From Dictyostelium discoideum (Eukaryota), in the NCBI GenBank assembly GCA_000004695.1, contig CM000151.3, positions 96,001-160,000 of the forward strand: DNA of 64,000 nt, in the 5' to 3' direction. Under the pieces are notes generated by a model. The model did no database searches, was not told the DNA's origin, and worked only from the letters and a program-made list of their open reading frames with translations. The translations under genes were made by a program, and so were the position numbers. Shown here one piece after another: positions 51,174-52,936 of the stretch. Positions within the stretch are counted from its first letter, which is position 1, and every line of letters starts with the position of its first letter.

Positions 51174-52936
51174 TTAAATTTTTAAAATAAAATCTTTTAT
51201 ATTTTTATTTATCCATTTTAAAATATCATCTTCTTTAAAATTTGGATTTTCATATTGTAAAATTGTCATTGATTTCATTAAATTGGTAATATCAATAGAT
51301 TGATCTGGGAATAAATTTTTAATTTTCCTTCCATCAACTAATAAAGAAACCTTTTCAAAAGTGAAATTATCATCACTAAAAAGTTTAGTTAATTGATTTA
51401 ATACATCTAAAATTTCATTCTCTCTATCTGGATATTTCTCTAATAAATAAACTATTGAAATATTTAATGGAAAATTCCATTGTAAACCACCAGCTTTACA
51501 ATTTTTAAGTTCATGAAAAATTGAATATAAATTTGATTTATCATTTAAATTATTTAAATATAATTTAAAATCTTTTAATTGATTAATATTATTTGTATTA
51601 TTATTTGTATTATTATTTGTATCATTATTAATATTTAAAAATGATGAAATTAAATTATTAAAAAGTAATGATATATTTAAAGTTGAACCAGTATTTGTTG
51701 AAAATTGATAATTAATTAATGATTTTATAGTTTTTGAAGTATTATCTTTAAATCCTAAATGAGCATCAATAAAAAATGGTAAAAATATACAACATTTATA
51801 AAAATCAATATTAAATAAATTATCATTATTATTATTATTTTGATTAATTAATATTTTTAAATATTTTAAAGATTTTTTAAATAATTCTTTAATAATTTCA
51901 TGGTCATTTATAATTTTATCAAAATCAATAATTGAATTAATTAAACCAGTATCGATTAAATAATCAATTGATTGAATTACTGATGACTTGTTTGACATCA
52001 TTAAATGAAATTCTTTATAGATTCTTTCTTTACTAACTTTATTTGAAATTAGTTGTTTATTAAGATTGAATTTAATTGTATTATAAAGTTGTTGTTCTAT
52101 TTGAAAACCTTGAAACCTACTTGCGAATCTGATCACTCTGAATGCTCTTAACGGGTCGTCTAGTAGTGTTTTCAGTGGTTCCAATGGTGTACGAATTATA
52201 GAATTCTCAAGATCACTTAACCCATATCCTGAATGGTCTTCAATCTTTAGTGTATTTAAATTATAAAATAATGAATTTATTGTTAAATCTCTTCTTAAAC
52301 AGTCTGATAATGGTGACCAACCGTAATTTCGGGTATTCTAGAATTCGGATCACTATATTCATCACTTCTTAATGAATTGAAATCAATTTGAAATCCATGA
52401 ATATTAATTGATGCTGTCTCTAAATGTTTTGATTTCTCTGGATTTCTTTTTATTAAATATTTTTTAAAAGATTCTTTATTAATTTTAAATTCTTCTATTA
52501 ATTTTATAAAATTAGTACCTGAAATATTACTTAATGCAATATCAATATCAATATCAATATCTTTTATTTGTTGTTGTTGTTGTGGTTGTGGTTGAGGTTG
52601 AGGTTGTTGTTGTTTTTGATTATCTAATAACTATTATAAAATTAAATAAAATAAGTAAAAAATTTTAAAATATTTTTTTAAAAAAAAAAAAAGAAAACTT
52701 ACTTTATCTCTAACCCAACCACCTGCAACTCTTAATTCAATATCATTTCTATTATTGAAAATTAATATGTTTTTTAAAAAATCAAATAATTTATTTTCTT
52801 CTGGACTAATTTGTATATTTTTTGTTGGAATTGAATTATTTGAATAAAATAATTTATTTAAATAATAACTATTATTATTATTATTATTATTGTTGAAAAT
52901 CTTTGCAGTCTTTTGGAATGCTGAAAGTATTTTCAT
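51174..52936 (-). CDS. tRNA nucleotidyltransferase (CCA-adding enzyme, class II), with an apparent 1-nt frameshift in exon 2. Exons 52703..52936 and 51174..52630.
   Basis: Exon 1 reads ..ELRVAGGWVRDK with a GTAAGT donor. Exon 2 begins LLDNQ..DIDIDIDIAL. Motifs SRIPEITVG / SPLSDCLRRDLTINSLFYNL and DPLRAFRVIRFASRF match the yeast Cca1 region SRIPKVCFGTPEEDALRRDATLNALFYN..DPLRVLRLIRFASRF. Confidence 0.55.

Follow-up and report, generated by a model that had tools for sequence, protein, structure and literature searches.

Dictyostelia possess two eukaryotic-type CCA-adding enzymes, encoded in Dictyostelium discoideum by DDB_G0271378 and, on chromosome 6, by DDB_G0293504 (PMC7432833). Recombinant forms of both enzymes, CCA2 included, add a complete CCA to tRNA, the codon-optimised synthetic genes having been built from database coding regions. 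Knock-out in AX2 failed for both genes, and the two are inversely regulated in development, the regulation of cca2 mRNA being taken from dictyExpress RNA-seq data (PMC7432833). The N-terminus of CCA2 has been reported as a mitochondrial targeting signal (PMC12718117). CC-only enzymes, for their part, have as their hallmark the deletion of the B/A motif along with the flexible loop, two elements of the stretch between motifs A and B (PMC7947759). The naming of the Dictyostelium genes is not consistent in PMC7432833: section 2.2 uses 'cca1' for DDB_G0271378, while the methods, the legends of Figures 1 and 3 and the supplement use 'cca2'. The Q/N-rich description given there fits DDB_G0271378 as CCA2, and we call this gene cca2 throughout.

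Here we analyse cca2 as it appears in the reference sequence of strain AX4, in a window of 64,000 nucleotides of chromosome 2 (the whole stretch of DNA under study, positions 1..64000, which correspond to 96001-160000 of the chromosome). The gene is split there between two reading frames. Our data suggest that this frameshift is very probably an error in the AX4 reference text and not a property of the organism, a view that rests on the comparison of genomic and published protein sequences.

Results

Gene identity and structure

cca2 (DDB_G0271378) lies on AX4 chromosome 2 and occupies 51174..52936 of the window on the minus strand (1763 nt). The published chromosome 2 coordinates, 147174-148936 (Erber et al. 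2020, PMC7432833), equal ours plus exactly 96000, with the same length. Once spliced as in the public model, the window sequence gives the AX4 protein EAL71819.1 / Q55BE1, every residue matching. CCA2 (DDB_G0271378, Q55BE1) is therefore this very locus, with its Q/N-rich tracts, its PF01743 head domain and its motifs A, B and D. Its features are the following:

52703..52936, minus strand: exon 1 (from the ORF list, boundaries checked against the GenBank protein)
52631..52702, minus strand: intron 1, genuine, 72 nt, phase 0 (GTAAGT...ATAG, 93% A+T)
52316..52630, minus strand: first part of exon 2, up to the lesion, in frame -1 like exon 1 (translation, tblastn, alignment)
52315..52322, minus strand: lesion patch (pairwise and five-way DNA alignments)
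52295..52297, minus strand: premature TAA of the upstream frame; in the downstream frame it overlaps the codon with which motif B (RRD) opens
51174..52315, minus strand: remaining coding sequence, in frame -3 only (translation, tblastn)
52304..52365, minus strand: spurious 62-nt GT..AG "intron" of the AX4 model (splicing it out gives the 542-aa protein exactly)

Exon 1 starts with the ATG at 52936, encodes the N-terminal presequence and ends in ...RVAGGWVRDK, of which GGWVRDK (52723..52703) is the first part of motif A. Intron 1, which follows, is common to the AX2-type, wild-isolate and AX4 gene models. The upstream part of exon 2 encodes a Q/P tract, then DIDIDIDIAL with the carboxylates that complete motif A, and continues through SRIPEIT. 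The part in frame -3 contains motif B (RRDLTIN, 52295..52275), motif D (DDPLRAFR, 52160..52137), the body and tail domains and the stop codon (51176..51174). Motif A is thus present, its two parts being GGWVRDK, which closes exon 1, and DIDIDIDIAL, which lies in exon 2. PF01743 (Pfam) matches the corrected protein with 68.4 bits and the GenBank model with 53 bits, for a cut-off of 23.

Two repeats in this region are of interest in their own right. The segment DIDIDIDI, to which the catalytic DxD carboxylates of motif A belong, is encoded by a perfect hexamer repeat, (GATATT)x4, at 52537..52561 on the minus strand, and two wild D. discoideum assemblies have one GATATT unit fewer (DIDIDIAL). A microsatellite of variable length hence sits at the active-site motif A of cca2. 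Just after the first part of motif A, the Q/P tract QQQPQPQPQPQQQQQ (52568..52618, minus strand) varies in length and sequence among D. discoideum isolates: it is 7 residues shorter in one of them and reads QQQQQPHQPQQQQQ in another.

A second CCA-enzyme gene, which the sequence-only reading had envisaged, does exist in the genome (DDB_G0293504 on chromosome 6, PMC7432833), although it is not needed to explain the frameshift. Within the 64-kb window, tblastn found no second CCA-enzyme gene. The same whole window (1..64000) contains no tRNA genes detectable by ARAGORN and no Rfam families at the gathering threshold.

The frameshift in the AX4 text

In frame -1, exon 2 starts at 52630 and reads LLDNQ...DIDIDIDIAL...SRIPEITVGHHYQTV*, that is, LLDNQKQQQPQPQPQPQQQQQIKDIDIDIDIALSNISG...NSRIPEITVGHHYQTV followed by the TAA at 52297..52295. 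The conserved continuation, (W)SPLSDCLRRDLTINSLFYN...DDPLRAFRVIRFASRF..., is found in frame -3 and runs to the stop at 51176..51174. Translation and tblastn thus bear out what had been seen from the letters alone, namely a clean ORF from 52630 that stops soon after a point beyond which the conserved enzyme continues in another frame. The interval proposed for the switch, 52310..52325 with the string ggttggtcacc, was also right: when an intact orthologous protein is searched against the window by tblastn, frame -1 gives way to frame -3 exactly at 52316/52315. The segment in frame -3 is 99.7% identical to the 563-aa protein of assembly GCA_054883475.1. In the window text, motifs B (RRDLTIN) and D (DDPLRAFR) are consequently in frame -3 and motif A in frame -1. 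The three motifs share one frame once a missing A is restored, as they do in the four other assemblies described below, and we attribute their split across frames to an error in the sequence and not to the gene.

The codons of AX4 across the site are CCC GAA ATT ACG GTT GGT CAC CAT TAT CAG ACT GTT TAA, and those of GCA_054883475.1 are CCC GAA ATT ACA ATT GGT ACA CCA TTA TCA GAC TGT TTA AGA AGA GAT, which translate to PEITIGTPLSDCLRRD. Two A-to-G differences and one absent A separate the AX4 text, ACGGTTGGT-CACC, from ACAATTGGTACACC in GCA_054883475.1. The two Gs are G52322 and G52321, where all other assemblies have A, and the missing A belongs between T52316 and C52315 (the GGT/ACA junction). 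All three differences of the patch involve an A in the true sequence. The missing base is an A and not a T, and substitutions at the neighbouring positions 52322 and 52321 go with it. For the same reason the true peptide is not EITVGSPLSD: DNA alignments show it to be EITIGTPLSD.

Intact alleles in other assemblies

The gene of GCA_054883475.1 encodes a continuous protein of 563 aa (KAM9951353.1, ...EITIGTPLSDCLRRD...). Its allele is identical to that of AX4 at 1761 of the 1763 aligned gene positions and has the same intron, and its protein is identical outside the patch. It differs in having ACAATTGGTACACC in place of ACGGTTGGT-CACC, which yields a single continuous ORF; the G/A differences at 52322 and 52321 and the extra A are the sole differences from the window over the whole gene. 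At the patch, ACAAT(T/A)GGTACACC stands, in frame, both in the two wild D. discoideum assemblies (about 96% identical to AX4 over the gene) and in D. dimigraforme (74%). The frame is intact and the extra base present in all four other assemblies, which are independent of one another (a near-identical laboratory strain, two wild isolates and D. dimigraforme). Since the wild D. discoideum assemblies and D. dimigraforme agree on the other reading, the state of the AX4 reference is a derived outlier.

Over the 21.8 kb compared between GCA_054883475.1 and the window, we counted 19 differences: 15 in the length of A/T homopolymers, three isolated SNPs and the cca2 patch. If the six point (non-homopolymer) differences were placed at random in 21.8 kb, the chance of finding three of them clustered within 7-8 bp would be about 5e-6. 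So low a probability for independent events argues that the patch is one local event. The isolated SNPs, at 55100, 48742 and 45573, are all outside long ORFs (window 42965..62687 compared). Over the same interval, the homopolymer tract is the shorter one in the Nanopore-based assembly in 14 of the 15 cases, and this shortening is probably assembly noise on the Nanopore side.

The locus tags and accessions of GCA_054883475.1 are of the series used by the project of PMC12745789, which produced Nanopore and Illumina assemblies of AX2-214, of two wild D. discoideum isolates (CR116C and OT3A) and of sister species. By elimination among these genomes, the near-identical assembly GCA_054883475.1 would be that of AX2-214, because the other two D. 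discoideum genomes of the project are wild isolates that diverge here by about 4%. Clustering of proteins at 90% identity groups four members, namely the AX4 model (542 aa) and three proteins (of 563, 560 and 555 aa) that more recent D. discoideum assemblies contribute. These are all derived from genomes at NCBI; no Logan, ENA or transcriptome entry that would give transcript-level evidence for AX4 is found in the cluster, and an exact look-up of the 542-aa AX4 model returned no contig on record.

An intact CCA2 in the literature

The supplement of Erber et al. 2020 gives, under accession DDB_G0271378, the protein of 'D. discoideum 2', a laboratory-strain allele with ...RIPEITIGTPLSDCLRRD... 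(PMC7432833). Allowing for machine-reading errors in the PDF, the printed sequence is this allele and contains ...FNSLRS(D)EYSDPN(S)RIPEITIGTPLSDCLRRDLTINSLFYN...; it is 96% identical to the 563-aa protein of GCA_054883475.1 and continuous across the site. Across the patch it reads EITIGTPLSD. CCA2 as published thus differs from its own database records, the window text carrying the patch of three differences and the UniProt/GenBank entry lacking 21 residues. No repair of the AX4 genomic text would yield the I and the T (it would give V), and the authors or their database must therefore have had real sequence data with an intact frame. There is, then, independent intact-frame sequence data that predates the 2025 assemblies. 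The coordinates quoted in 2020 span 1763 nt, which indicates that the chromosome sequence then in use still carried the error. The dictyBase update papers describe the manual correction of gene models and contain nothing on the cca2 locus or on sequence errors; the supplements to the paper on the D. discoideum de novo transcriptome do not mention cca2.

The public gene model

The AX4 model (EAL71819.1 in GenBank, XP_645671.1 in RefSeq, Q55BE1 in UniProt) has 542 aa. Cutting both 52365..52304 and the real intron out of the window gives this GenBank protein residue for residue. The 62-nt interval spans the frameshift, and without it the protein loses a conserved stretch of 21 residues, SDEYSDPNSRIPEITIGTPLS-D, that sits just upstream of motif B; in the alignment the model reads ...DFNSLR[SDEYSDPNSRIPEITIGTPLS]-(D>N)CLRRD..., the 21 residues in brackets being absent. 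The corrected peptide, LRSDEYSDPNSRIPEITIGTPLSDCLRRDLTINSLFYN, aligns without gaps to the plant and fission-yeast CCA-adding enzymes of solved structure (LRSEEYTE-NSRIPTMKFGTAKDDAFRRDLTINSLFYN). The segment between motifs A and B, which A-addition requires (PMC7947759), is accordingly complete and gap-free in the corrected peptide, and short of 21 residues in the 542-aa model.

The interval has GT..AG ends (GTGATG...ATCAG). The earlier claim that no GT..AG intron can be placed at the site was in this sense literally wrong, since the public model uses 52365..52304, but it was right in spirit, the interval not being a credible intron. Its A+T content is 61%, against 80% in the exons and 93% in the true intron, so that it shows no intron-like A+T enrichment. 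In the intact alleles the corresponding GT..AG interval measures 63 nt, and skipping it would keep the frame.

Discussion

A probable error in the reference sequence

The sequence-only reading preferred a sequencing or assembly error, and the four intact assemblies, the intact protein of 2020 and the tight cluster of three differences give support to this preference. The most plausible scenario is a local error in the Sanger-era AX4 reference, in which three A's within 8 bases would have been mis-called, two of them as G and one being dropped. The real gene would encode one uninterrupted enzyme of 563 aa, in which motifs A, B and D are intact, as is the segment from A to B, and neither recoding nor pseudogenisation nor unusual splicing would be needed at cca2. 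Automated gene prediction would then have masked the error with a fake intron of 62 nt, and as a consequence the GenBank/RefSeq/UniProt protein lacks the 21 residues directly upstream of motif B. A local base-calling problem that affected three A's seems to fit the patch far better than a triple mutation.

There are precedents for discrepancies of this kind. Resequencing of mutation-accumulation lines derived from AX4 uncovered 1916 substitution differences from the reference that lines had in common, ascribed by the authors to reference errors or stock differences (PMC3466296). In contrast, a single true new mutation was found in 1000 generations, which puts the mutation rate at 2.9e-11 per site and generation (PMC3466296).

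Three facts point the other way. One is the length of 1763 nt quoted in 2020, given above, by which the chromosome sequence of that time still had the error. The intact sequences come from what appears to be the AX2 lineage, from wild isolates and from a published protein, and the source of the latter is given solely as a dictyBase gene ID. AX2 and AX4 were derived separately, as axenic strains, from the wild isolate NC4, and an intact AX2-type assembly is therefore by itself no proof of an intact gene in AX4. Still, taken together, the sequences argue that AX4 cells themselves very probably carry an intact cca2.

Alternative explanations

The main alternative is that the patch is a real lesion: a complex mutation, made of two substitutions and a 1-bp deletion, would have inactivated cca2 in the AX3/AX4 lineage, the activity being supplied by cca1 on chromosome 6. 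Chemical mutagenesis can produce clusters of lesions, and it preceded the isolation of AX3, from which AX4 descends; this must be counted in favour of such a mutation, as must the provenance of the intact copies compared here, which come from strains other than AX4. The loss would also be tolerable in principle, since the other CCA-adding enzyme is fully active on the same range of substrates (PMC7432833). However, what we observe is a single lesion patch in an ORF that is otherwise free of lesions and 100% identical to that of the sister strain, together with an mRNA described as developmentally regulated on the basis of dictyExpress RNA-seq (PMC7432833). The protein printed under the dictyBase ID has an intact I-G-T. 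The measured mutation rate is very low when compared with the many reference differences common to AX4-derived lines (PMC3466296), and A-to-G changes next to a lost A would resemble mis-called A peaks more than a known mutagen signature. We thus regard a mutational origin of the patch as unlikely. A little less likely again is that the sequenced AX4 clone, and possibly current stocks, are truly lesioned, so that the reference strain would be a natural cca2 null living on cca1 alone. If this were the case, it would contradict the essentiality of both enzymes that has been inferred from the failed AX2 knock-outs, and it would make the predicted mitochondrial paralogue dispensable.

It could also be argued that the 542-aa protein is genuine and the 62-nt GT..AG interval a true intron, spliced constitutively or alternatively. 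The interval does have GT and AG at its ends, its removal restores the frame of the AX4 text, and its length of 63 nt in intact alleles would allow in-frame skipping. We nevertheless find this very improbable. Not only is its A+T content of 61% far from the 93% of the gene's real intron, and below the 80% of the exons, but its 5' end is GTGATG and not GTAAGT. The 21 residues it encodes are conserved from D. dimigraforme to the plant and fission-yeast enzymes of solved structure, and every gene model from the four other assemblies, like the published protein, reads through the interval. Also, it lies in the motif A-B stretch, which contains the two elements whose loss is described as marking CC-only enzymes (PMC7947759), and yet full CCA addition is reported for the product (PMC7432833).

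Least credible of all, to the point of being almost negligible, is recoding, in which a programmed -1 shift of the ribosome, slippage in transcription or RNA editing would restore the frame of a truly frameshifted gene. Its sole support is the arrangement of the gene, a conserved enzyme whose two halves occupy neighbouring frames and are otherwise free of defects. Against it we find no X XXY YYZ slippery heptamer or homopolymer run at ACGGTTGGTCACC (shift point ACG GTT GGT CAC C), no stable RNA structure in the 131 nt downstream (MFE -14.6 kcal/mol versus a shuffle mean of -19.1, z = +1.41), no conservation of the frameshift, which is absent from every orthologue, near-identical strain included (0/4 other assemblies, all in frame), and a published peptide whose I and T differ from the V and the other residue that a frameshift on the AX4 text would produce, so that the ribosomal frameshifting raised by the sequence-only reading fails for want of slippery site, downstream structure and conservation alike.

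Significance

If the reference is in error, as we believe, the biological significance of the frameshift is small, since the literature already covers cca2, the paralogue and the activity. Its practical value lies in curation. The text of AX4 chromosome 2 appears to be wrong at 148315-148322, and the 542-aa protein of DDB_G0271378 in GenBank, RefSeq, UniProt and EukProt is short of 21 conserved residues in the stretch from motif A to motif B. The public model is misleading for the classification of tRNA nucleotidyltransferases, for alignments and structure prediction, and for the design of primers, guides and constructs. The sequence to be preferred for use is the 563-aa KAM9951353.1.

Comparison with known CCA- and CC-adding enzymes

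CCA1 (DDB_G0293504, chromosome 6), the paralogous enzyme of the same organism, belongs to the same family as CCA2 and has the same reported activity and substrate set. Its local motif, ...SRIPVISIGTPLQDALRRDLTINSLF..., shows the same G-T-P ahead of motif B. The two proteins are about 28% identical, and CCA1 has no Q/N tracts, an opposite developmental expression and no predicted mitochondrial presequence.

The comparison with CC-adding enzymes is of another kind. Like them, the 542-aa model has lost part of the stretch between motifs A and B and so mimics their hallmark, whose defining elements are placed in this stretch as a whole. The real cca2, however, encodes the full segment, and its enzyme is reported to add complete CCA (PMC7432833). 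The likeness of the 542-aa model to CC-adding enzymes is an annotation artefact.
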